The translations under genes were made by a program, and so were the position numbers. Below, piece by piece: positions 19,336-58,691 of a stretch of DNA of 64,000 bases. Position 1 is the first letter of the stretch; each line of letters starts with the position of its first letter. The notes beneath the pieces were generated by a model. That model was not told the DNA's origin. It saw only the letters and a program-made list of their open reading frames with translations, and searched no databases. This DNA is from a virus, in IMG/VR virus record IMGVR_UViG_3300023063_000001, positions 19,572-83,571 of that record; one strand, written 5' to 3'.

Positions 19336-20136
19336 TTAATATAGCGTTGCGAACACACCGCCGTTCTTATTACTATAATCTGAATCGCCGTAGTTAAGAC
19401 CCCAACCAAGCCCGTACCCATAAGTCCCGTTAATATCACCGAAACCAAGGGCACCCGGACTGCCATCAAATCCAAAATACTCCCCGGCTTGGTATTCCCC
19501 ATACTTAACCCCTACACCAACTGTCTTAGGAATTAACCTAGAAGGGTAGCCATCTGTGGAGTTAATATAAGCTAACAAGCCTTTTTCATAGTCGCTAAGC
19601 TGTCTACCAAAGAGGACAGTGACGTTAGCATTACCATCTTCTGTAAGGGATGTACCTGTTGTACCAAAGATTAGATTGACTACTTCAAGAAATTCTTCTG
19701 GTGTAGAGGCTGTGGTGTTCTTATAAATCTTAGCTCTGATAAAAAGACGATAGGTGTCATCATCTAAGGCAATATTACCGCCTGTAGGAGCACCGTAGTC
19801 TAGAAACTTACCACCATATAAATTACTACCGTACTCTCCAAAACTTGCTGCTTTAGGTGCTCCGACAAAGCCAAAGAAGGTGTAGAGGTCAGCATTCAGT
19901 AGAACACGGTCTTGACCTACAATACGTCCTATGACATCAAGCTGAGCACCTGTAGCGTTATCAATATCACGAAGCTGAAGAAGATCTTTAAACACTTCCT
20001 GGATATTGGTTTGAGCATCTACTAGAAGTTGCAAATACTTGTCAAACACCGGAGCATATTCTTGTTTAAATTGTTCAGTTGTTCGACTTCTTGCCGTTGC
20101 TAAAAAATCCTCTTCATTAAACACAGGAGTTGTCAT
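19336..20136 (-). CDS. Baseplate wedge protein (DUF2612-like)
   Basis: ATGAQLDVIGRIVG, FFGF, DDDTYRLFIRAKI. Confidence 0.8.
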   Translation of the reverse strand: MTTPVFNEEDFLATARSRTTEQFKQEYAPVFDKYLQLLVDAQTNIQEVFKDLLQLRDIDNATGAQLDVIGRIVGQDRVLLNADLYTFFGFVGAPKAASFGEYGSNLYGGKFLDYGAPTGGNIALDDDTYRLFIRAKIYKNTTASTPEEFLEVVNLIFGTTGTSLTEDGNANVTVLFGRQLSDYEKGLLAYINSTDGYPSRLIPKTVGVGVKYGEYQAGEYFGFDGSPGALGFGDINGTYGYGLGWGLNYGDSDYSNKNGGVFATLY

Positions 20137-27059: not shown

Positions 27060-27533
27060 TTAAAACAAGGATGAAACTCCGGAGGAGATTGCATCTAAAA
27101 GTGAACCAGAAGGTGTGGTAGTGTTACCAACATTGTAAACGTCTGTACTTAGGCATTGTATTGTCCAAGCCCTTTCAGATAAGGAAGCGTCAAATACAAC
27201 GTCAGCAAAGTTAACCACAAAAGCTTCTGAGGATTTAAATAAGCTTGTCCCACCTGTGTCTTTTAATAACAACTCAAGACGTGATGTCCCAGAGGTTAAG
27301 TCAGCAGTTAGTAAACTAGAGAATATACTATTCCATTCGCTACCGGCTGGTAACGTAAGTCTAACCGTCGCACTTGTGTCATAGCTTAATACTCGCGTGT
27401 GCTTACCACGAATACCCTTAATCGTCAGGATAGGGTAGCTGTCTCTTGTAATAGAAATTACATTCCAACCTACTAAGATTTGTTCGCCAATAACTAGATA
27501 TATTGCTTCAGGATCATAAGTTGTTATTGTCAT
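27060..27533 (-). CDS. Tail tube-fold protein (paralogue 3)
   Basis: TYDP..KDTGGTSLF..R.W motifs shared with the two upstream genes. Confidence 0.7.
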   Translation of the reverse strand: MTITTYDPEAIYLVIGEQILVGWNVISITRDSYPILTIKGIRGKHTRVLSYDTSATVRLTLPAGSEWNSIFSSLLTADLTSGTSRLELLLKDTGGTSLFKSSEAFVVNFADVVFDASLSERAWTIQCLSTDVYNVGNTTTPSGSLLDAISSGVSSLF

Positions 27534-28030
27534 GAAATCAAACCTGCAAGACTTGGAATCTCAGCCACCAAAGTATTAATAATATCTTCAGCTATAGAGG
27601 ATGCACCATAGCTATCACCAAAGCTAACAACACCTTCACTCGCCCTGATAATCCAAGTGCGAGGTACTACACTATCACCAAAGATTAAATCAGGTTGTGC
27701 TTCAATCCAGCATGTAGTAGAGAAAAACAAACTTGATCCCGATGTATCTTTAATAAATAAAGGAAATTTAGCAACGGTTGTAGTTTGATCTGCAATCAGA
27801 AAGTATTGAAGTATTTTACTTGTCTTGCTGACAGATGATAGAGTTAATTCTATAGTGTAAGACTTACTGGAATTCCTGCGCCTGTATTGAACACCATCTG
27901 TTGAAACACTGCTTGAAAAAGTTTGTGCGTCTTTACTAACCCTAACAAATGTTCCTGATTCAACATCTTCTACAATAATACCAAGGATGTTAATAGTTAC
28001 ACTGGTTGGATCATACATTGAAAAAGGCAT
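27530..28030 (-). CDS. Tail tube-fold protein (paralogue 2)
   Basis: MYDP..IKDTSGSSLF..RTW. Confidence 0.7.
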   Translation of the reverse strand: MPFSMYDPTSVTINILGIIVEDVESGTFVRVSKDAQTFSSSVSTDGVQYRRRNSSKSYTIELTLSSVSKTSKILQYFLIADQTTTVAKFPLFIKDTSGSSLFFSTTCWIEAQPDLIFGDSVVPRTWIIRASEGVVSFGDSYGASSIAEDIINTLVAEIPSLAGLIS

Positions 28031-28081
28031 ATTCTCTCCTTATCTGGAGAGGGGCAATAAAGCCCCATCCCTCTTCTTTAT

Positions 28082-28615
28082 TTAGCTAATCCATTTGGCT
28101 GGAATAGTTACACCTAAGCTAGCAGCTTCGTCAACCAAAGCACCATCAACTTTACTGTTACCACCAAGAATATCTTCAAGCTTGTTAACACGTACCACCC
28201 ACTCACGGGTTTCCATTGTGTTACCATACATTGCATTTGGTTTAACAGCTACATAAGCTTGATAACCATAGTGTAGCGAACGGCCAGATGTGTCTTTAAC
28301 AGTAATAGAGAACAAGTTATCGCTTGACTTACCACGAATGTCACGAGCAAACAAAGCATCAAGAATATCATTGGTATCTGAAGTCATCTGTAGTGGGATG
28401 GTAATGTTAGCTTTATCCCAAACAGCATTATAGATACGAGTTGTATTGCCGTAAGCCCCAACTGATTCAGACCAAGCGTCTGAACGCTCGATTCTCACGA
28501 TCTCTGATTCGCTCACACCGTCAACAATATGTGAACGAGGGGCACCATTATTATCTTCCCAATCAAGAATTATATAAACTTGCGTGGGATCATAACTACT
28601 AAGCATACCACTCAT
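28082..28615 (-). CDS. Major tail tube protein (DUF3277-like)
   Basis: SYDP..LQMTS..VKDTSGRSL..REW; follows sheath, followed by a hairpin. Confidence 0.78.
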   Translation of the reverse strand: MSGMLSSYDPTQVYIILDWEDNNGAPRSHIVDGVSESEIVRIERSDAWSESVGAYGNTTRIYNAVWDKANITIPLQMTSDTNDILDALFARDIRGKSSDNLFSITVKDTSGRSLHYGYQAYVAVKPNAMYGNTMETREWVVRVNKLEDILGGNSKVDGALVDEAASLGVTIPAKWIS

Positions 28616-28642: not shown

Positions 28643-29665
28643 TTACACATGCACGGTTCCTTTTATAATTACTTTTTCGACGGCCCCTTGTAGGGTTGCA
28701 TCAAATAAGAAGTCACCGGCAATACGTTGCAGACGTTGGTTCTCCGGGATGTCACTCACTCTTGGGACCGTGATTGTGTAGGTACTATAAGCACCATTGG
28801 TCACACCAAGAGCTAGTACAGAACGCATCTGAGCTTCAACCAAAGCAAATCCTGCATCGGTGTACGGAACTTTAGGCTTGCGAACCAACATACCAAATAC
28901 TGACTCTTGCATACGGGCAATCGTCCAAAACACAATGATCTGTTGATCAATTTTTGTGCCATCTGCCATCATATTATGCCGAGTGATGTTTACCCCTGCA
29001 ATAGTGATATAGTAGGACATGTTCTTACTTTCTAGGTTAGTGCGAGCAGTCTTCGAAAGATTGTCTGCTGGGACACCTTCAAGAGTCTTAAATTCCCAAG
29101 TGTTAGCACCCGGAGTATAAGTCAACTGGCTGCCTACCCATGCAGCTTCTGGATAATATGTATCTGCTGCTGTGTGGAAAGTGGTGCTTGTTTGGTCATA
29201 ACCCAAGGCTTTAAGCTGGGCACCAATATCTGTTGTAGTCACTGCAAGGGCTGTAGCATCTTGGGTAGATGTGAAATATACTTTGTTAACCGTTGCAATA
29301 TAACCAGCCATGGCCAGAACATCAGCAGGAACGTGTGTACCAGCAACCAAAGCAAACCAAGTACTGTTTTCAGCATCTACGGCTGTCAAGGCTTGTAGCC
29401 AAGTTTCTGTAGTTGGTACTTTACGCCCAATCACTACAGTATTAGGAGATTGATCCTGACCAAAAATTGCTTCTGCCATTGTTAGAACAAGAGGAGCATT
29501 GAAGTCTTCAACAACCTCAGCGTAAGAGGAATAGGTACGAGTACGTGAATCAGTCCAATCCGTAAATTCGGCTAGAATTAGGGGGATCGTAAATGAAGCC
29601 GTGGTGATAGTTTCTGTCTGAGCACTGATGCTGACAGAAACTACATCATCTAGCATATTAGCCAT
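28643..29665 (-). CDS. Tail sheath protein (DUF3383-like), compact 340 aa
   Basis: TWEFKTLEGV, KVPYTDAG, LQGAV motifs; synteny. Confidence 0.88.
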   Translation of the reverse strand: MANMLDDVVSVSISAQTETITTASFTIPLILAEFTDWTDSRTRTYSSYAEVVEDFNAPLVLTMAEAIFGQDQSPNTVVIGRKVPTTETWLQALTAVDAENSTWFALVAGTHVPADVLAMAGYIATVNKVYFTSTQDATALAVTTTDIGAQLKALGYDQTSTTFHTAADTYYPEAAWVGSQLTYTPGANTWEFKTLEGVPADNLSKTARTNLESKNMSYYITIAGVNITRHNMMADGTKIDQQIIVFWTIARMQESVFGMLVRKPKVPYTDAGFALVEAQMRSVLALGVTNGAYSTYTITVPRVSDIPENQRLQRIAGDFLFDATLQGAVEKVIIKGTVHV

Positions 29666-29673
29666 TTATTATT

Positions 29674-30207
29674 TTATCCTATGCTTTCTGGGATTTCATA
29701 ACGATCACCCGTGTTTTGATTTACGATTTTTACTTGTTTAATGTAATCCACAGATTGCTGCGTTATATACGCATAACTGAAAGTTACATCTTGAATAAAA
29801 GTTTGTATATATTTTGTATCACGAACTTGAGGAGCATTCCTGATAGATGATGTTCTCATCTTACCTAGATTATTCTCATTCATTCGTTCCCTATATATAG
29901 GGCTATTAAATCTTTGGGCAAAGTCATGAGCAAGATCACCTGCTGTACTTCCCTTGAAAGTAAACTGTACTTGAGCTTCATAGTTAGCAATAATATTTAA
30001 AAAGAAACTGTCACTATCTAGAGCAGTTTCAGAAGCTAGACTACTAACTTGCTCTCTCCCTATCTGATCAATACTAAGAATATGCATTCCTACATAAGGA
30101 TCTGTAGGCTCTGTTCCACCACCATACATCCAAATAACTTGTGATGTTGGGAACATAAAAGAAATAGTGTTATAAAGAGCACTTCTTAACTCTGTGTATG
30201 CAGCCAT
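29674..30207 (-). CDS. Tail terminator / neck protein
   Basis: QVIW..PTDPY; synteny. Confidence 0.65.
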   Translation of the reverse strand: MAAYTELRSALYNTISFMFPTSQVIWMYGGGTEPTDPYVGMHILSIDQIGREQVSSLASETALDSDSFFLNIIANYEAQVQFTFKGSTAGDLAHDFAQRFNSPIYRERMNENNLGKMRTSSIRNAPQVRDTKYIQTFIQDVTFSYAYITQQSVDYIKQVKIVNQNTGDRYEIPESIG

Positions 30208-33463: not shown

Positions 33464-34855
33464 TTATTTAGTTTTTGTTTTAAATTGTTCAGCGATCAAC
33501 TTTGCGAGATGATCTTCCATTGCTGGTGTAACAGCAGTGTCTACAACAGTGTCAGCACCCATTTCTTTAAACAGAGATGAATCACCAATCACTTTATTGC
33601 TCATTTCATGGCTAGCTACAACAGCGTCCATCTGAGCATCTGACAAACCATCAAGAGAGGCGAGCAGGGTTTTAGCTGCTTCATCACCAAGGACGGCTGA
33701 AAGTTTAGCGGTGCGAGCTTCTACAATAACAACTTTAGCAGCTAGTTCAGCAGTTTCTTTTTCTGCTTTGAACTGAGCTACAAATTCATTTGCTTCAGCA
33801 AGTTTAGCTTGAAGATCTACAACACCAGAAAGGGCTAGTTGCATTTCTTGTTCTTTAGTTTGAAAAGCTAGCTGAAGTGCGGACAATTCCGACTTAGCGA
33901 GTTCTAGTTCGTTCATGTCGAAACTCTCCAGAGACACTGATGTGTCTACGTTCTTGGTCATTTTAAATAGTTTGTCTTTTAGCATTGAAGAATCATTTCC
34001 TTTATTGCTTTGGGCTGTATCTGCTAAGTATTCGTAAAAATCCTCGATGGACATTACCTTATCTGCTAGACCAAGCTTCAAAGCGTCTCCGGAGAGAAAC
34101 GTCTTTGCTTCTGTGGCTCTAACTGCTTCTACAGAAATGCTGCGATTCTCAGCAACAAACTCTGTAAAACTGTCGTAGAGAATATCTACTTTTGATTGAA
34201 TATCTTCTAAGAATGCAGGTTTGAAAGATCCGTCATTTGCAAATGGGGTCTTGGATGCACCTGCCGTAATAAAGGTACGTTCATAACCTTCTTTCTCAAG
34301 AGCTTTACTATCATTAATTAACTGAACAACTACACCAATACTGCCTATATCACTTTGAACATTAGTAATAATTTGATCAGAAATAGCTGTAAGAGCATAG
34401 GCGGCGCTGGCACTTAAACCATCTACATAGCTTAATATCGTGACATCGTTGGCTTGTGCATAAGCTTTGATATAGTTAGCTGCATCAAACAAACCGTAAG
34501 CTGAGCCTCCACCACTATCAACCATGAATGCAATAGTCTTTGCACCATTATCAACTAGATAAGTAAAGTCAGCTTTAAGGTTCTGATAGCTAGTACCACC
34601 ACAATCCATTCCCATCATTGTAACGGGTTTATCTGTAAGTGGGCCTTGGATGTCCATAACGGCTACACCAAGATCAGAGTTAAATGAATAGCGGTTTGTA
34701 ACTTTGTTTGAAGGGCTGTCTTCATCGTCATCTAGTTTAAAATCACTAGCTTCACGACTGTCTAGATAATCCAAGACTGTTTCAAAGGATTGAAGATGCA
34801 TCAAATGAGGAGTGTTAGACAGCTTCTCTTTAATACGTAAAAGTTGATGAGCCAT
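33464..34855 (-). CDS. Prohead protease (S49) fused to scaffold; probable internal scaffold start at ATG 33916
   Basis: DSGGG, ASAAY, GSIGVV, GLAD; C-terminal coiled coil; GGAGAG RBS 7 nt before in-frame ATG 33916. Confidence 0.9.
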   Translation of the reverse strand: MAHQLLRIKEKLSNTPHLMHLQSFETVLDYLDSREASDFKLDDDEDSPSNKVTNRYSFNSDLGVAVMDIQGPLTDKPVTMMGMDCGGTSYQNLKADFTYLVDNGAKTIAFMVDSGGGSAYGLFDAANYIKAYAQANDVTILSYVDGLSASAAYALTAISDQIITNVQSDIGSIGVVVQLINDSKALEKEGYERTFITAGASKTPFANDGSFKPAFLEDIQSKVDILYDSFTEFVAENRSISVEAVRATEAKTFLSGDALKLGLADKVMSIEDFYEYLADTAQSNKGNDSSMLKDKLFKMTKNVDTSVSLESFDMNELELAKSELSALQLAFQTKEQEMQLALSGVVDLQAKLAEANEFVAQFKAEKETAELAAKVVIVEARTAKLSAVLGDEAAKTLLASLDGLSDAQMDAVVASHEMSNKVIGDSSLFKEMGADTVVDTAVTPAMEDHLAKLIAEQFKTKTK

Positions 34856-36376
34856 TTAATTTTCCTTATTTGAAGTAGATGAGTCTCCAGAGCTACCCGT
34901 TGCACTACCCGTACCTGAGGGAAGACCAGCCGCCAACCCTTCACCACTGGAACTGTCTGCTGGACCTAGAAGCTCATTAAGATCATCCTGACTCATATCC
35001 TCATCCACACGATCTGGAAGACCAATAATCTCAGCAATGTAGTTAATGTTCTTAGGGGTAGGGGCTACAAGACCGACAGCTTTAGTTCGTTGCAAAGCGC
35101 TAGAGAGTGCGTCAATATCCGTGGCGTCCACTTCACCATAGCAAAGCTTAGGCATATCTACAGGATTCCAACCATTAAGCTGTGCAAGCTGTTTAATCAC
35201 ATCATTATTGAATACATCTTGAATTTCCATCAAGGCTGTTTCAACTCGTGTGGCTACAATGCTTGTCTTGTTATCAGCAAGGCTAAAAGAACCTGTATTG
35301 TTCTGACCCATCTTCAACACATCAGCAAAGAATGACATTAGAATTTCTGTTGAATACCTGTCAATGACAGCACCAACATCAAAGCTTTTAGCTCCCGTAA
35401 CACCAGCCAACTCAAAGTTGAACATCTTGTTACCAGACTCATCATAGATGGTTGGAAGAATCAAACCCTCTTGTTCTTCACGATGTAAATTACGCATCAC
35501 TTTCTTTAGGTATTCGTAGGTGGCTTTATCAGAGTCAGAAGCACCTTCCACCATATATTGAACAGGGATAGAAAGAACTGGAAGCCCTCTCATATCCTTG
35601 CTTATACCAACAGCTTCAGCTTCTTCTAACGCCTTCTTGAACTTCCACGATTCCCAACAATAGATAAGAGGACTTTCACCTGTTGGGCTATTCTTACGAG
35701 CGTTGGTTCTAAACAACATAAACTTTTCACGGGGGATAAGAACTCCAGGTGAAATCTGTGTTGATTGAACAAACTGTGTAGTTGTTGGGTTATCTATGCC
35801 TGTGTTATTTACTTGCCACTGGCGAACACCTGTTACATTACGATTGTTAGCATCCATTTCCCAACGAGCAATAGTTTCTTGACCACGACAATAAATACCT
35901 TTAAGACCAATCAACCCATCGTTGTAATAAGAGCCATTAATCTTTAATCTTTTTCTAAAAACCTTTTCACAGAGCGAAAATCCGTAAGTGTTAAAAGAAA
36001 TAATCTCTTTAATTGTTTGAAAGAAACTTGTATCTAAGTCTTCAAAAAATACTTCTTCTAGAAACTTCTTTTTAGCTTTCTGATCTGGTGTGGCATTGTG
36101 AGGAACATCAAAGCTCCACTTAGTCTTGCTAATCATTGTTTCAACAAGCTGAATAGCAGAACTTACTGTTGCATCTTTACGCATCTGTTTAAATGTGTAA
36201 ATGCATTGTGGCCATTGCAATTCTTGTCTGTAGCCATCTAGGATATTGTTTCCTAGTTCTACACCCGGTTGACCAGATTCAGTGAACTTGAGACGTGGGA
36301 TTGTAGAATCCGTTCCCGTTGTTAATGTCGGCAACTCTGTAGTTGCCCCCACAGGAGCCTTTTTTGTTGCTGCCAT
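34856..36376 (-). CDS. Portal protein
   Basis: QMRKDATV, YGFS..EKV, PTGESPL, GSFSLAD; follows TerL. Confidence 0.9.
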   Translation of the reverse strand: MAATKKAPVGATTELPTLTTGTDSTIPRLKFTESGQPGVELGNNILDGYRQELQWPQCIYTFKQMRKDATVSSAIQLVETMISKTKWSFDVPHNATPDQKAKKKFLEEVFFEDLDTSFFQTIKEIISFNTYGFSLCEKVFRKRLKINGSYYNDGLIGLKGIYCRGQETIARWEMDANNRNVTGVRQWQVNNTGIDNPTTTQFVQSTQISPGVLIPREKFMLFRTNARKNSPTGESPLIYCWESWKFKKALEEAEAVGISKDMRGLPVLSIPVQYMVEGASDSDKATYEYLKKVMRNLHREEQEGLILPTIYDESGNKMFNFELAGVTGAKSFDVGAVIDRYSTEILMSFFADVLKMGQNNTGSFSLADNKTSIVATRVETALMEIQDVFNNDVIKQLAQLNGWNPVDMPKLCYGEVDATDIDALSSALQRTKAVGLVAPTPKNINYIAEIIGLPDRVDEDMSQDDLNELLGPADSSSGEGLAAGLPSGTGSATGSSGDSSTSNKEN

Positions 36377-49764: not shown

Positions 49765-50139
49765 CTATTGCTTTGGTCCGACGTATTCTAAAGTAAACAT
49801 ACGATTTCCCATCTCATCAGTAATGGCAGGCAAAATCATTCCTTCACTCTCACCATTATTAATTTTTCTAAGCTGTTCTTTTAGAAGTTTGTAAATAGCC
49901 AGATCTTTTTCTTTTGCTGATTCTTGCATATATTGAATAGGTACATGAAGAACATATGCACCATTACAGTCTTTAAAATCAGTAACAGCTACAGCTTCTT
50001 GTTCTTCATATAACTTAAGTTTTTCATAAAGCTCAATAGCCATACTACGATACATAGGGCCATCATTATGCTGACGAGGGCCTGCGTAGTGTGCAGAAAG
50101 ATGGGCAGCAACAATAGAATGTTTTTCAAAATCAGACAT
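49765..50139 (-). CDS. Stand-alone portal-fragment paralogue (124 aa)
   Basis: About 37/77 identities by eye to the portal segment at 35403-35626; GAGGA RBS. Confidence 0.85.
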   Translation of the reverse strand: MSDFEKHSIVAAHLSAHYAGPRQHNDGPMYRSMAIELYEKLKLYEEQEAVAVTDFKDCNGAYVLHVPIQYMQESAKEKDLAIYKLLKEQLRKINNGESEGMILPAITDEMGNRMFTLEYVGPKQ

Positions 50140-55036: not shown

Positions 55037-55882
55037 TTGGTAGCAAGTGAGGTGTACATGGGAAGTCGCGAAAGAGCATTTGTAGTACAAGTTGACGGAC
55101 AAGATGTTGCCGTTCCTCGTAAGCGTGTTCGTAAAGACAAGGTTGGTAAACCTGCTGTCAATCACAAGTATGATGAAGAAAAAGAATTCAACTCAATGCA
55201 CTTCAAGCCAATTGGTGATGCCCAAATACTAGGCGCTCAGTATTTGCAAGAGGGTAGGAAAATTGTAGCACTGCAAGGTCCAGCAGGTGGTGGTAAGAGT
55301 ATTCTTGCTGCTTGGCACGCTGCAAACTTGTTGAAAACTAAATCCATCAGTAAACTATTTCTTGTTCGGCCTTATGAATCTTGCGGACGTACAATAGGTG
55401 CAGTTCCAGGCACGGAAAACGAAAAACTGGCTGTGATATTCACTAGTATTCTTGAACATCTTGCAAAGTTTCTTGGACGTACGCAATTATCCTATCTTCT
55501 TGAAAAGAAAGTAATAGAATTCAAAAGTGTTGAATGGATGCGTGGATATAGTTTTGAAGATGGTTGTTTTGTCTTGTGTGAGGAGTCACAAGGGTTTGAT
55601 ACAGAGCTTATGCAGATGCTTACCACCCGTGTCGGTGATGGTGCTCAGCTTTGTATGACAGGTGACTGGCGGCAAAAAGACATTCGTAAAGAAACAGGTC
55701 TTCGTTATCTGGATGAGTTGGTAACAGCAGTTAATGGAAATCCCCCACCATTCTTGGACGCAGAAGATATTAGGGAAATTCGCGATAACATTGGTTTTGT
55801 GAACTTTACGTTTGAAGACAGCGGGCGTCGTAGTAAGCTAACTAAGGCACTTGTTAAAATGTTTTACTACGAGAAGGGGTAA
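55037..55882 (+). CDS. phoH: PhoH-like ATPase (start may be ATG 55058)
   Basis: GPAGGGKS, RP..GAVPG..EK, MRGYSF, EESQ, TRVG, GD.RQKD. Confidence 0.92.
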   Translation: MVASEVYMGSRERAFVVQVDGQDVAVPRKRVRKDKVGKPAVNHKYDEEKEFNSMHFKPIGDAQILGAQYLQEGRKIVALQGPAGGGKSILAAWHAANLLKTKSISKLFLVRPYESCGRTIGAVPGTENEKLAVIFTSILEHLAKFLGRTQLSYLLEKKVIEFKSVEWMRGYSFEDGCFVLCEESQGFDTELMQMLTTRVGDGAQLCMTGDWRQKDIRKETGLRYLDELVTAVNGNPPPFLDAEDIREIRDNIGFVNFTFEDSGRRSKLTKALVKMFYYEKG

Positions 55883-55885
55883 GTA

Positions 55886-56641
55886 ATGAGTAAAGAAGAT
55901 ATGATTTTCCCGATGATTCAAGATCAATGCCCCGTAATGCATTCCACAATTACAACAAATGTGTTTGATATTATTCTAGATGATAATATTCGTGAGCCCG
56001 CCTACTACCGAGATGCTTTTCAAGTGTTTCGTCAGGCACAACGAGGAGATCGAATCAATTTAATCCTGAATAACTCAGGTGGCCGTCTTGATAGTGCAGT
56101 ATGTTTTGTAAACTTAATGAAAGAAACTGACGCAGAAGTTGTTGCAATCTTGGAAGGCGAGACACATTCAGCCGCATCAATCATAGCACTGAATGCCCAC
56201 GGTATTGAAGTAAAGCCATATGCATCAATGATGATTCATCACGCAAGTTTTGGTTCTGGAGGAACTGTTCAGAATGTAATGGATCATGTGAATTTTACAA
56301 GCAAGCAAACAGAACGTTTGATTCGGGAAACGTATCAATTTTTTCTAACGGAGGCCGAGCTAGACGAAGTGATTCGTAATCGCGAAATCTGGTTGACGGA
56401 CGAGGAGATTGGAGAACGTCTAGATACTATGTTTGAGGCCCGTAAAGAACAAGGCTGTGGTGTAGAGGGTTGTAGTTGCTCGGAGATTACAGAAGAGCTT
56501 GAAGAGGGTGATGGATTTGATCTTGATATGATGATTGAAGAAAAAGTTCAAAAGGCCCTTGAAGTCTACGACAAGAAACAGAAAACTCTTGCAGCCAAAG
56601 CAGCCAAAAAGAAACCTGCGGTGAAATCAGATGAATCCTGA
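55886..56641 (+). CDS. ClpP-like serine protease
   Basis: NNSGG, HSAAS (Ser), MMIHH (His), EIWL. Confidence 0.88.
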   Translation: MSKEDMIFPMIQDQCPVMHSTITTNVFDIILDDNIREPAYYRDAFQVFRQAQRGDRINLILNNSGGRLDSAVCFVNLMKETDAEVVAILEGETHSAASIIALNAHGIEVKPYASMMIHHASFGSGGTVQNVMDHVNFTSKQTERLIRETYQFFLTEAELDEVIRNREIWLTDEEIGERLDTMFEARKEQGCGVEGCSCSEITEELEEGDGFDLDMMIEEKVQKALEVYDKKQKTLAAKAAKKKPAVKSDES

Positions 56642-56846
56642 AGAGTATCTAAGTAGTGTACTTTTAGAGATTATTAAGGAGAATAAAATTCCACTCACTG
56701 AGAGAGGTCTTGCTTTTCTACAGAAAGAAGTGACTAATCGGTTAATCGATAAAGGTTATGAGATAAATATTCAACCTGTCTCGGAACTATCTGGTGAAGA
56801 TCGCAGACAGAGGGCAACACCTAGGATTGAAATTATCCTTAAATAA
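56631..56846 (+). CDS. Stand-alone tail-sheath C-terminal fragment paralogue (71 aa)
   Basis: KIPLTERG..Y.I...VS..S..DR.QR vs sheath KVPYTDAG..YTITVPRVS..QRLQR. Confidence 0.65.
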   Translation: MNPEEYLSSVLLEIIKENKIPLTERGLAFLQKEVTNRLIDKGYEINIQPVSELSGEDRRQRATPRIEIILK

Positions 56847-56907
56847 CCCTTGACCTGAATACGTGCCCTCCTATAAACTGAGGGCACACAAACTAAAGGA
56901 GATACAA

Positions 56908-57117
56908 ATGAACAGTAAAGCATTGTTAGAAATTAAAGAGATGTTCGATAAATACAATATTTCTATTCAAATAGTTTATAACAATAAATTATCCGTAGGG
57001 AGATGTGAACCAGAGCTTTGTATGTATTTTAAAGATGAAAGTGGCTTAGGTTTAGAACTAGATCATTTTTGGGAAGACAAGATTAAAGCTTATAACTTAA
57101 TTCCATTTGCTGTCTAA
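56908..57117 (+). CDS. Hypothetical protein
   Basis: AAGGAG RBS before ATG 56908; TTGACC promoter-like element at 56850. Confidence 0.6.
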   Translation: MNSKALLEIKEMFDKYNISIQIVYNNKLSVGRCEPELCMYFKDESGLGLELDHFWEDKIKAYNLIPFAV

Positions 57118-57137
57118 ACTAACTAGAGGAGAATTAA

Positions 57138-57347
57138 ATGTCTAAACGTTATTGGGAACCAAATCTTAACCAAGGTAATCACTTCACAGAACAAGATGTG
57201 ATTATTGGAAATCTTTTGGCTTACATTGCTAAAAAAGAATACAAAGCTGATGAGTTTGGTTGGTTCTTGAAAGAATCATCCCCTTATTGCAAATTTAATC
57301 TTGACACTATGCAGCCTGAAATACTAGAATACAAGCCTACACTTTAA
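57138..57347 (+). CDS. Hypothetical protein
   Basis: GAGGAG RBS. Confidence 0.6.
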   Translation: MSKRYWEPNLNQGNHFTEQDVIIGNLLAYIAKKEYKADEFGWFLKESSPYCKFNLDTMQPEILEYKPTL

Positions 57348-57666
57348 CAACATAATAGGAGAGGATTATGACGTTTTACGAGTTTAAAGAAGAGAATTAT
57401 TCAGAGCAATATCAAGATAACATTGAAACTATCTTGGCTACGCTTGAGGATATACGTTATACACTAGGGGAGGAGCTTACTGCTGCTTTGTCATATGATA
57501 GATTGGATGCTGACTTCTAATGCACATCATCTTTCTAATATTAATGGTTTGTGCTGTTGCAGGGCGTAGACCACGAAGACGATATAGGCATGGAACAGAG
57601 ATTCCTATTTCTTTACAGTTGGTGGGACTATATTTCTTGTTGTGGTTTGCTTTGAAGGGGTAGGTT

Positions 57667-57933
57667 ATGACTAAAGAAGTTGAAGTGGTGATTGTTTCTT
57701 TTGCTGAATACACGTCTTATGATTTCATTGATCCTGGAACTTATTTCTCTGTATCTGCTATGCAAAAATATTACTTTTATAAAACAAGTGATCGTAAAGC
57801 TGCTCAAGATAAGTGTGATGAATTATTTGGTGTTGGTCATTATGTGGTTAAAACAAGCAAGACAGTCAAGACTAAGTCCCGCCAAGAATCGGGAAGCTAC
57901 ACATGTACTGGCACAGCGACTAGAAATAAATGA
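57667..57933 (+). CDS. Hypothetical protein
   Basis: Co-directional ORF with RBS-like sequence. Confidence 0.55.
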   Translation: MTKEVEVVIVSFAEYTSYDFIDPGTYFSVSAMQKYYFYKTSDRKAAQDKCDELFGVGHYVVKTSKTVKTKSRQESGSYTCTGTATRNK

Positions 57934-58036: not shown

Positions 58037-58297
58037 ATGAATATTGCTAAATTTCTTTTAAGTTGTACATCAGATCAACATAATGGACACTTTCAAACAA
58101 TACTTAAAGGGCTTTCAATTAAAAAGGGTGTAAAGATTTGTAGGAAACTTGAGAGTATTACAAAGAAGGATTATGTTCTTGAAGTTTGGACTTGTGATAG
58201 CTACTGTATTTATGAAAAAGATGCATGGAAAGATGGAGAACATCCTTTGCATCATAAAGATCGGTTGATTGCCTCGGTGGATAAGAGTGAAAGATAA
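58037..58297 (+). CDS. Hypothetical protein
   Basis: AAGGAG RBS. Confidence 0.55.
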   Translation: MNIAKFLLSCTSDQHNGHFQTILKGLSIKKGVKICRKLESITKKDYVLEVWTCDSYCIYEKDAWKDGEHPLHHKDRLIASVDKSER

Positions 58298-58691
58298 GCA
58301 CATTAAAGCCTACATGAAGTGTGCAGAAGCTTTTGCTGAATGCTCTGTATCTAAAAGGTTGTCTGTAGGCTCTGTTATTGTTAAAAACAATCGGATTATT
58401 TCTTGTGGTTATAATGCCTTACCTGAGTTCATAGATGGACCACTAGAGGATGAGTTTGGTAAAACCCTACCAGAGACAAGACACGCAGAGAAATCAGCCT
58501 TAATGGGGCTTACTAAGAGCAATGAGAGCGCTGTTGGAGGTGTATTGTTCTGCACGCACGCATGTTGTAAGTTCTGCTCTATTGATATTATTGACAGCGG
58601 TATAACAAAAGTATACTATCGAAATGAATATAGGAGCACAGAGGGTTTAGAGTACCTTCGTGCAAACAACATTGAAGTAATAAAGATTTAG
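58269..58691 (+). CDS. dCMP deaminase
   Basis: VGSVIV..GYNA, HAE, THACCKFC (PCxxC variant). Confidence 0.9.
   Translation: MPRWIRVKDKHIKAYMKCAEAFAECSVSKRLSVGSVIVKNNRIISCGYNALPEFIDGPLEDEFGKTLPETRHAEKSALMGLTKSNESAVGGVLFCTHACCKFCSIDIIDSGITKVYYRNEYRSTEGLEYLRANNIEVIKI

Follow-up and report, generated by a model that had tools for sequence, protein, structure and literature searches.

Is the short open reading frame that lies among the accessory genes of an uncultured phage a free-standing piece of a contractile-tail sheath, and if so, what could such a piece do? Contractile injection systems of every kind (phage tails, tailocins, extracellular injection systems, type VI secretion) are jointed by the β-sheet handshake, and the reading frame in question, encoding 71 amino acids, had been matched by eye in an earlier note to the C-terminus of the phage's own sheath. 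It lies in a 64,000-nucleotide stretch of viral DNA (positions 19,572 to 83,571 of IMG/VR record IMGVR_UViG_3300023063_000001), which as a whole is referred to here as the window.

The 71-aa reading frame and its genomic setting

The reading frame had been placed after a ClpP-like gene, on the opposite strand and 27 kb off the tail genes, and the ORF coordinates bear this out: some 27 kb separate it from the sheath gene of the phage, which is encoded on the opposite strand (Table 1). Its start and the stop of the ClpP-like gene overlap by 11 nt, and the sequence GGTGA is found 7 nt 5' of its ATG; a Shine-Dalgarno sequence stands ahead of the ATG both in the window and in the homologues at two further loci, L003 and L012. 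The 71-aa reading frame is a real gene, as can be seen from the intact reading frames of its family, the Shine-Dalgarno sequences and the conserved position. We also considered whether it merely extends the ClpP-like gene through a frameshift and rejected this, since in L003 and L012 the homologue stands apart from the ClpP-like gene and has a ribosome-binding site of its own.

The neighbourhood is non-structural, comprising PhoH, ClpP-like and dCMP-deaminase genes and no late genes. Past the stop codon, the -10 element of the promoter-like site is flanked by an 8-bp inverted repeat (56863-56870 / 56880-56887), and L003 shows a comparable promoter-like arrangement 3' of its 71-aa homologue. 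Read from the sequence, this site possibly places the 71-aa gene last before a new transcription start; sigma-70-like sites between 52000 and 60000 number 29, against 24.2 +/- 5.1 expected by chance, and are thus not in excess. A DNA sequencing run labelled leaf litter metagenome contains the stretch in full and is possibly where it comes from; no RNA run is among those listed as carrying it.

Table 1. Positions in the window of the 71-aa gene, its neighbours and the sheath gene
Feature	Coordinates	Strand	Remarks
71-aa gene	56631..56846	+	ATG ORF; by profile comparison, free-standing relative of the handshake-platform (C-terminal) domain in tail sheaths of the DUF3383 type
Tail sheath gene, 340 aa	28643..29665	-	DUF3383 (Pfam) E 4.7e-23; phrog_205 E 3.4e-80
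Sheath segment aligning with the 71-aa protein, residues 251-321	28703..28915	-	hhalign; hmmsearch domain 251-314
Last 19 sheath codons, residues 322-340	28646..28702	-	no counterpart in the 71-aa protein; alignments stop at or before residue 321
ClpP-like protease gene	55886..56641	+	CLP_protease E 3.9e-11; phrog_1827 E 7.5e-53; directly 5' of the 71-aa gene
PhoH-like gene	55037..55882	+	PhoH E 2.6e-35; opens the conserved PhoH-ClpP-ORF block
Promoter-like TTGACC-16 nt-TATAAA	56850..56887	+	read from the sequence, directly past the stop of the 71-aa gene

A family of small stand-alone proteins

Searching 1.84 billion representative sequences with phmmer returned eight small relatives of the 71-aa protein (E 1e-12 to 5e-4); matches to ankyrin repeats (P0003, P0009) and to a His-tagged synthetic repeat protein (P0007) were dropped, their sequences marking them as repeat-summed artefacts. 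The family profile retrieved 43 proteins, all at E<=2.2e-12 and, except for one 51-aa fragment, all 69-84 aa in length. In total the family comprises 44 clusters of stand-alone proteins, some of them on 81-94 kb contigs, with a mean column identity of 50% and with similarity extending over the full length, so that, judged by sequence, the reading frame and its relatives form a new family of ~71-aa stand-alone proteins.

The gene lies downstream of the PhoH and ClpP-like genes in all three contexts (the window, L003 and L012), and in L012 two further small ORFs are placed between the ClpP-like gene and the homologue. It is absent from G003, a 100%-complete relative, and is therefore accessory; in L004 the next conserved gene comes immediately after the ClpP-like gene, with no 71-aa gene between them. 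It follows from its absence in G003 and L004 that tail assembly does not need it. We thus regard it as an accessory gene of an uncultured phage group (81-94 kb contigs), outside the morphogenesis module. Neither a megablast search with positions 55800-57400 nor a tblastn search with family member P0151 matched any phage record, and no cultured carrier of the family was found in these records. The word-index search with the 71-aa ORF alone gave no match beyond its own sequence, the scan with family member P0004 gave no locus, and family-profile (A3) scans of viral and metagenome contigs gave one contig only, which is listed under two names. A published description of a stand-alone sheath-domain protein was likewise not found in the literature, which was surveyed mainly by listing.

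Relationship to the sheath's C-terminal domain

The sheath of the phage belongs to a family present in 322 phage records, mostly of Pseudomonas, Escherichia and Salmonella phages. Its gene is flanked by a tail terminator gene (29674-30207, PF23961) and by three phrog_280 paralogues, and the tail module also encodes a phrog_120 baseplate-wedge protein, which has no Pfam match and which we take to be a gp25-type initiator.

Pairwise comparison of the 71-aa protein with this sheath by BLASTP gave nothing, the best hit (E 3.1) covering 10 residues in another region. Comparison of the two families by hhalign aligned residues 6-68 of the ORF with residues 251-321 of the sheath at 90.4% probability and E 1.4e-6, with 20% identity over 64 columns, and thereby reproduced the colinear match seen by eye. 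Repeating the comparison with the 43 family sequences gave a probability of 86.3% (E 4.8e-6), and setting the family against the single sheath sequence gave 71.6% (E 3.5e-5); as controls, the family reached 0.3% against the baseplate-wedge protein (phrog_120) and 0.2% against the tail terminator. The match had been said to concentrate at conserved sheath positions, and this too proved correct: K19, P21, T23 and G26 together with R58 and R61 of the ORF align with K265, P267, T269 and G272 together with R311 and R314 of the sheath, and in both families the motifs K-x-P-x-T-x-x-G and R-x-x-R show no or almost no variation.

Profile libraries point in the same direction. The PHROG tail sheath profile phrog_205, which has no curated cut-off, is matched by eight of nine family members (best E 8.8e-8) and by the ORF alone at E 2.4e-4; seven of the nine match phrog_9590 and four match DUF3383 (best E 0.0016). 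The profile phrog_38059 (88 positions, function unassigned) is also matched by four of the nine members and, in the genome, by the ORF only, with three of 14 control genomes matching as well. Among the PHROG and Pfam matches of the nine members, no sheath initiator of the gp25/TssE type was found. Taken alone, the ORF scores 12.2 bits against Pfam DUF3383 (PF11863; cut-off 34.9, E 0.082) and remains below threshold. Profile searches of the PDB gave weak and mixed results, in which the XM1 and Pam3 sheaths (E 0.27-1.7) rank no better than RFC, transaldolase and MTH889, and the first motif block is matched equally weakly by RFC and transaldolase chains.

The relationship is reciprocal within the genome. 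Over 1192 stop-to-stop ORFs from the window and four related loci, the family profile matched nothing but the two members of the family and, at E 0.0012, the sheath of the window, and over all six frames of the whole 83,571-bp genome the sheath was its sole extra match (E 2.9e-4). Conversely, the phrog_205 profile run over the genome gave the 71-aa ORF as the sole extra match (E 9.1e-4), with none in 14 control genomes. Run against a database of 120 related sheaths, the family profile also matches 115 at E<=0.1, always near the C-terminus; these sheaths are akin to one another and thus not independent tests. Among 50,697 phage records, tblastn gave seven weak matches (E 0.8-3) in five distinct ORFs, all five of which are sheath-family homologues (E 1.8e-46 to 9.2e-9), and here the matches stop 16-21 residues before the C-termini. 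Separately built profiles (the ORF-family alignments, the sheath alignment A2, phrog_205, phrog_9590 and DUF3383) thus converge on the same family, on the same C-terminal region and on two colinear blocks. The 71-aa protein covers residues 251-321 of the 340 sheath residues and lacks the full sheath architecture; in the sheaths examined the matches end 16-25 residues short of the C-terminus. From these profile comparisons we conclude that the protein, conserved within its family, is a stand-alone version of the C-terminal domain found in DUF3383-type contractile-tail sheaths, copied long ago and since diverged, and the profiles and the gene position together support the view that such a stand-alone homologue lies among accessory genes, outside the tail module.

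Predicted structure

Two AF2 models of the 71-aa protein, at a pLDDT of about 75, show helices at residues 3-18, 24-41 and 55-60 and strands at 43-48 and 65-70; in the alignment-based one of the two the hairpin half reaches a pLDDT of 52-63 only. The predicted order helix-helix-strand-short helix-strand agrees with the three helices and two strands that the available text gives for the C-terminal domain in Pam3 (PMC9942802). In Foldseek searches, the seven best PDB rows are contractile tail or injection-system entries (E 0.09-0.45) and 11 of the best 50 BFVD rows are named sheath, with no match at E<=0.001 in either database. A second look with VIA scored sheaths at Z 6.1-6.2 and dynein-light-chain-like and POTRA domains at Z 5.1-5.7, while the wide (unbiased) VIA search returned no chain at Z>=5 and placed sheaths at Z 3.4-3.6 amid unrelated folds. 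A search of the ESM Atlas by features yielded no usable match. On such predicted models, structure searches do not separate the sheath from other folds for this protein. Co-folding of the sheath with the 71-aa protein, run without controls, scored 0.01 against a mark of 0.32, a value that we count neither in favour of binding nor against it.

A possible arm-binding role

In the sheaths of XM1 and Pam3, as far as the available text of the two reports goes, the C-terminal β-hairpin is the platform on which the arms of neighbouring subunits dock; sheath initiators offer a similar two-strand platform, and terminators cap the platform with one strand (PMC10457771, PMC9942802). The 71-aa protein retains the helices and the two-stranded β platform and lacks the arms at both termini as well as the outer domain. 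By analogy with XM1 and Pam3, we infer that sheath residues 322-340, which have no counterpart in it, form the C-terminal docking strand. Fragments of T4 gp18 without the C-terminal domain are not known to polymerise. Since the platform is present and both arms are absent, the 71-aa protein presumably could not extend the polymer: a platform that accepts strands and has none to give would be a dead end for sheath growth. Most likely it would bind free sheath arms, or a terminator-type strand, by β-augmentation, and such binding would delay or block polymerisation; the target would be the sheath of the phage itself, as long as tails are not yet ready, or else a contractile machine that competes with it.

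We therefore offer, tentatively and as a possibility more than an expectation, the proposal that the protein captures sheath subunits by their free arms before these have assembled and so holds back or blocks their polymerisation. Its absence from G003 and L004, the non-late gene setting and the ~20% identity to the phage's own sheath domain count against this proposal, and it can be objected on general grounds that a platform in monomeric form would face competition from a cooperative lattice. The family moreover scores 21-25 bits on sheaths from unrelated small phages and at most 16.7 bits on the sheaths of its own group; given these higher scores outside its group and the low identity, there is no sign of co-evolution with the phage's own sheath. 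We hold it to be quite unlikely that the handshake platform either poisons polymerisation or sequesters arms in contractile machines, be they those of a co-infecting myophage, a host tailocin or a type VI sheath, or else acts as a decoy towards immunity, and that it forms, with a portal fragment encoded elsewhere in the window, an undescribed accessory class built from single virion-protein interaction surfaces.

Alternative explanations

The first alternative, which we rate as rather unlikely, is that a sheath-derived domain was exapted for an unrelated job, for example as an adaptor, a regulator or a substrate-like partner of the ClpP-like protease, or in host takeover. The position downstream of the ClpP-like gene in all three contexts, the overlap of start and stop codons in the window, the non-structural neighbourhood and the far divergence from the sheath (about 20% identity) would all fit such a role, as would the accessory nature of the ClpP-like gene itself, which is suggested by the separate S49 prohead protease already encoded in the head module of the phage. 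On the other hand, conservation in the family is strongest at just those residues that are invariant in sheaths, suggesting that the ancestral surface or its turns were retained; moreover, the ClpP-like genes of G003 and L004 occur without the 71-aa gene, and in L012 the two other small ORFs intervene.

The protein could also belong to the tail of the phage itself as a minor component of the virion or of its assembly, either as an additional platform at baseplate or neck or as a chaperone for the sheath that only some lineages need. The AF2-predicted fold is compatible with this, and the core of the Pam3 initiator is described, in the part of the report available, as resembling the sheath C-terminal domain with the same two-strand platform (PMC9942802). 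We nevertheless consider it distinctly improbable, as the tail module already holds a terminator (PF23961) and the phrog_120 baseplate-wedge protein, neither of which shows profile similarity to the 71-aa protein, and as the gene, at a distance of 27 kb, runs on the opposite strand and is missing from the complete relative G003.

That the protein is an immune decoy or blocker, which would mimic a sheath surface seen by a host sensor and occupy the sensor without activating it, appears highly doubtful. This idea draws on a second candidate mimic, the ORF at 49765-50139 on the minus strand, a stand-alone portal fragment that, over 80 aa, is 48% identical to the portal of the phage itself (E 6e-22); both virion-protein fragments lie outside the morphogenesis genes, and portals are stated to trigger Avs sensors in the accessible text of a 2026 preprint (10.64898/2026.01.04.697583). 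In the same text, however, the tail sheath is named only among what STAND sensors 'might' detect and not as an identified trigger, and nothing pertinent on sheath-triggered defence was found in the literature listings. A fragment with the recognised fold might, by reasoning, trigger the sensor rather than silence it. In G001 and G003, furthermore, the portal itself is the only match and no separate copy of the portal fragment is found, and thus the portal and sheath fragments do not travel together. Finally, a chance or convergent small α/β motif without evolutionary link to sheaths, which the empty BLASTP comparison, the DUF3383 score far under the cut-off, the unselective PDB profile matches and the non-discriminating structure searches would allow, is very improbable in the face of several separately built profiles that single out one family and one C-terminal region in two colinear blocks, the reciprocity and uniqueness of the profile matches within the genome, the coinciding invariant residues and the negative hhalign controls.

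If the 71-aa protein is a copy of the acceptor platform, it would provide a naturally selected, arm-less, ready-made probe or inhibitor of the handshake joint, only 71 residues long, and would at the same time be a first case in which a phage retains one interaction surface of a virion protein in the form of an accessory gene of its own. Should the function turn out to be unrelated, the family still illustrates the excision and re-use of a structural domain.

Comparison with known systems

A close counterpart of the 71-aa protein is the C-terminal domain of XM1 gp6 (PDB 7KH1) and Pam3 gp13 (PDB 8HDW), with which it shares profile homology over ~65 residues, the K-P-T-G and R-x-x-R positions and, as predicted, the helices and two strands. 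In contrast to sheaths of the XM1/Pam3 type, which measure 340-497 aa, it consists of 71 aa without docking strands or outer domain, and unlike a sheath gene, which would be expected between the terminator and tube genes, its gene is placed outside the tail module and occurs in only some relatives. A cluster of short viral proteins in the ESM Atlas (59 members, representative 99 aa) ranks second among the structural neighbours of the Atlas model (TM 0.62/0.50 over residues 1-71), which is itself poor (pLDDT 0.58); 25% of its members carry DUF3383, and the cluster may consist of true small genes or of broken sheath genes.

With the sheath initiators (T4 gp25/TssE, XM1 gp15 and Pam3 gp21) the 71-aa protein would share, according to our prediction, the nature of a separate small protein with a sheath-like two-strand platform. 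As far as the available descriptions go, initiators have in addition a wedge-binding part and a location in the baseplate module, both of which the 71-aa protein lacks, and by hhalign (0.3%) its family has no profile similarity to the window's phrog_120 baseplate-wedge protein. In the Pam3 initiator, the available text describes a core structurally resembling the sheath C-terminal domain (PMC9942802). The terminators (XM1 gp5 and Pam3 gp12), which have no sequence relation to the 71-aa protein (0.2%), donate a strand to the platform, whereas the 71-aa protein would be the platform; by ending sheath growth through β-augmentation at this same platform, as the accessible accounts describe it, they provide a precedent for control of the polymer.

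The 71-residue protein is very probably a homolog of the tail sheath C-terminal domain

An earlier reading of the DNA had noted, by eye, that the 71-residue product of the ORF at 56631-56846 resembles the C-terminus of the phage's own DUF3383-type tail sheath. Pairwise BLASTP finds no match between the two proteins. The accompanying expectation that profile and structure searches would lead to DUF3383 or the sheath C-terminal domain held in part: DUF3383 is the sole Pfam match of the ORF alone and phrog_205, the PHROG tail-sheath family, its best PHROG match (E 2.4e-4, with profile positions 355-416 of 455 aligned to residues 30-69), but the DUF3383 score of 12.2 bits (E 0.082) stays far below the Pfam cut-off of 34.9 and a Foldseek search of the PDB with the single-sequence AF2 model gave no row at E≤0.001. 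Searching 50,697 phage records by tblastn returned just seven weak matches (E 0.8-3) in five distinct phages; a profile of the window's sheath family recognizes all five underlying ORFs as homologs (E 1.8e-46 to 9.2e-9). In every case the matched stretch is close to the C-terminus and stops 16-21 residues short of it.

The resemblance is confirmed when the small family is analyzed as a whole. In an alignment of nine members, eight match phrog_205 (best E 8.8e-8), seven phrog_9590 and four DUF3383 (best E 0.0016), while any other Pfam family is matched by at most one member and, of the other PHROGs, only phrog_38059 (unknown function, four of nine) by more than one. Using hhalign, this alignment pairs residues 6-68 of the ORF product with residues 251-321 of the sheath in an alignment of 23 sheaths, picked among 120 listed of 158 found, with a probability of 90.4% (E 1.4e-6); with 43 family sequences the probability is 86.3% (E 4.8e-6), and against the single sheath sequence 71.6%. 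For two other tail proteins, the baseplate-wedge protein (phrog_120) and the terminator, this family profile gave no more than 0.3% and 0.2%, and a chance resemblance to the sheath is very improbable. Across the genome, the family profile adds only the sheath to the ORF itself (E 2.9e-4), and phrog_205 adds only the ORF to the sheath (E 9.1e-4), the latter with no signal in any of 14 control genomes, so that the relation is both reciprocal and unique within the genome. Outside the family, the sheath was likewise the sole match among 1192 ORFs drawn from four loci and the window.

Residues conserved in at least 90% of the small family are K19, P21, T23, G26 (invariant), S54, D57, R61, P64 and K65. 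As the earlier note had supposed, the matches fall on conserved sheath positions: the residues K265/P267/T269/G272 and R311/R314, invariant or almost invariant among sheaths, are the partners of K19/P21/T23/G26 and R58/R61 in the alignment. Taken together, these profiles make homology to the sheath C-terminal domain very likely.

Structural comparison agrees with homology but is no proof of it, and the sequence profiles therefore carry the case. In PDB profile searches XM1 gp6 (E 0.27-0.4; two colinear blocks, chain positions 397-418 and 445-481) and the Pam3 sheath (E 0.82-1.7) score level with RFC subunits, transaldolases, a methyltransferase and MTH889. The single-sequence model (pLDDT 75.4) and the alignment-based model both predict helix, helix, strand, short helix, strand. 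For the former, the seven best Foldseek rows were contractile tail or injection-system entries; a second structural look placed sheath C-termini at Z 6.1-6.2 versus 5.1-5.7 for dynein-light-chain-like and POTRA domains. For the latter, an unbiased search found no chain at Z 5, with sheaths at Z 3.4-3.6 amid unrelated folds.

The gene lies among accessory genes

Gene positions bear out that the ORF is located away from the tail genes, among accessory genes and on the opposite strand to the tail module, which further comprises a chaperone-like gene, tape measure, hub, wedge proteins and fibres. The source virus record (83,571 bp, direct terminal repeats, rated 100% complete) is covered by the window from base 19572 to 83571. 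The start codon sits within the last codons of the ClpP-like gene. This gene, the neighbour of PhoH among the accessory genes, encodes one of two ClpP/S49-superfamily proteases in the phage, and is an extra one, the head module being equipped with an S49 peptidase already. Directly after the sheath, where a single tail tube gene is expected, stand three phrog_280 paralogs, the 177-aa copy also matching KPP10_Orf10.

Immediately 3' of the ORF, a promoter-like element has its -10 between the two halves of an inverted repeat, perfect over 8 bp (GTGCCCTC / GAGGGCAC); at the same place in the related locus L003, another element carries its own inverted repeat around the -10. These could be a regulated promoter, kept in form and not in sequence. 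A small phrog_3948 protein (E 5.8e-24) with a C-terminal C-T/R-G-T-x-x-R motif is encoded downstream in all four contexts, with or without the 71-aa gene.

Features of the phage and of related loci (L003, L004, L012); window coordinates unless a locus is named
Feature	Position	Strand	Remarks
phrog_280 paralogs, three in tandem	27060-28615	-	157, 166 and 177 aa
Tail sheath	28643-29665	-	340 aa; DUF3383 E 4.7e-23; phrog_205 E 3.4e-80; phrog_9590 E 1.5e-30
Tail terminator	29674-30207	-	PF23961 E 8e-19
S49 peptidase, head module	33464-34855	-	likely prohead protease
Portal	34856-36376		
Stand-alone portal fragment	49765-50139	-	124 aa; outside head module
PhoH-like	55037-55882	+	precedes ClpP-like gene; PhoH E 2.6e-35
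ClpP-like	55886-56641	+	251 aa; CLP_protease E 3.9e-11; phrog_1827 E 7.5e-53
71-codon ORF	56631-56846	+	GGTGA 7 nt 5' of ATG
Promoter-like element	56850-56887		TTGACC-16 nt-TATAAA
Promoter-like element, L003	10211-10255		TTGACT-17 nt-TACAAT
phrog_3948 protein	57667-57933	+	
phrog_3948 protein, L003	10572-10910		
phrog_3948 protein, L004	6817-7110		
phrog_3948 protein, L012	4025-4399		
dCMP deaminase	58269-58691		downstream of ORF, along with small genes; phrog_174 E 5.8e-41
Cys-rich gene, L004	4962-5990		342 aa
Cys-rich gene, L012	1105-1872		255 aa

The small family spans 44 clusters and is dispensable

An exhaustive phmmer search of 1.84 billion representatives identified eight free-standing proteins, 69-77 aa long, at E 1e-12 to 5e-4. 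Three long repeat proteins (ankyrin-repeat P0003 and P0009, His-tagged synthetic repeat P0007) were dropped as artefacts, having reached E 1e-9 to 3e-5 through repeat summing, which calls for caution with short queries in this protein library. A profile search of 5.8 billion clusters yielded 43 proteins with E-values no higher than 2.2e-12. Apart from one 51-aa fragment they measure 69-84 aa, and none has an informative name or precomputed Pfam domain; adding P0004 brings the family to 44 clusters. Contigs of some members reach 81-94 kb. Two queries found no homolog in phage records. In the ESM Atlas, a cluster of short viral proteins, some of them matching DUF3383, gives a hint that free-standing proteins of this kind may be more numerous.

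The genomic context of the family ORF is known from three places, the window, L003 and L012. L003, in genome G001 (89,260 bp, 100% complete), holds a 46% identical copy with AGGAG 7 nt upstream, in the order PhoH, ClpP-like, ORF; this identity is close to the 41% between the two sheaths. L012, in G005, has the order PhoH, 255-aa gene, ClpP-like, 84-aa ORF, 31-aa ORF and family ORF. The family is missing from G002 (76% complete), G003 (100% complete) and G004 (39% complete), each of which carries a ClpP-like gene 68-72% identical, and in L004 no gene separates the ClpP-like gene from the phrog_3948 homolog downstream. From this spread, presence and absence it follows that the 71-aa gene is of old standing, maintained by selection and dispensable. 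It did not arise by recent copying of the resident sheath, since sheaths of unrelated small phages score 21-25 bits with the family profile and those of its own group at most 16.7.

The Cys-rich gene of L004 and L012 lies between PhoH and ClpP-like genes that are adjacent in the window and L003, and looks like a mobile insertion.

An arm-less platform as a possible binder of sheath arms

The data establish homology, the limits of the domain, its conservation and the gene's accessory status, whereas the mechanism is inferred. The cap or decoy proposed in the earlier note is plausible in its logic. In our tentative reading, which we consider possible but short of probable, the protein would act as a platform, the helices and beta-hairpin onto which neighbouring subunits' arms dock, that accepts strands and cannot donate any. 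By holding on to the arms of free subunits, or to a strand like that of the terminator, it would keep sheath subunits sequestered or act as a competitor of the initiator. Either the phage's own sheath or a contractile machine of foreign origin could be the target.

Rather unlikely, though next in line, is a re-used fold serving as partner of the ClpP-like protease or acting on another target. A minor tail or assembly part seems improbable, and an immune decoy marginally more so. The decoy gains a little from a second gene for a virion-protein fragment, the portal-like ORF, whose residues 41-120 match residues 247-324 of the phage's portal (48% identity over 80 residues, E 6e-22) and which also matches phrog_12381 (unknown function, E 4.5e-4). 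However, G001 and G003 contain no separate copy of the portal fragment, the portal itself being the sole match there, and the accessible part of a 2026 preprint mentions the tail sheath only as something that STAND sensors might turn out to detect (10.64898/2026.01.04.697583).

Returning to the arm-binding platform, the fold and the handshake principle are already known, while the literature searched yielded no description of a conserved free-standing arm-less sheath platform among accessory genes. According to the accessible portions of the two reports, beta-11 and beta-12 are capped by the final strand of the terminator in Pam3, where the initiator core resembles the sheath C-terminal domain and presents two strands (PMC9942802), and the XM1 initiator (gp15) and terminator (gp5) rely on the same augmentation (PMC10457771). 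The alignment with the ORF ends ahead of the sheath's last 19 residues, and this limit together with the predicted elements indicates that, in contrast to a full sheath, the 71-aa protein has the counterpart of the platform but neither docking arm.
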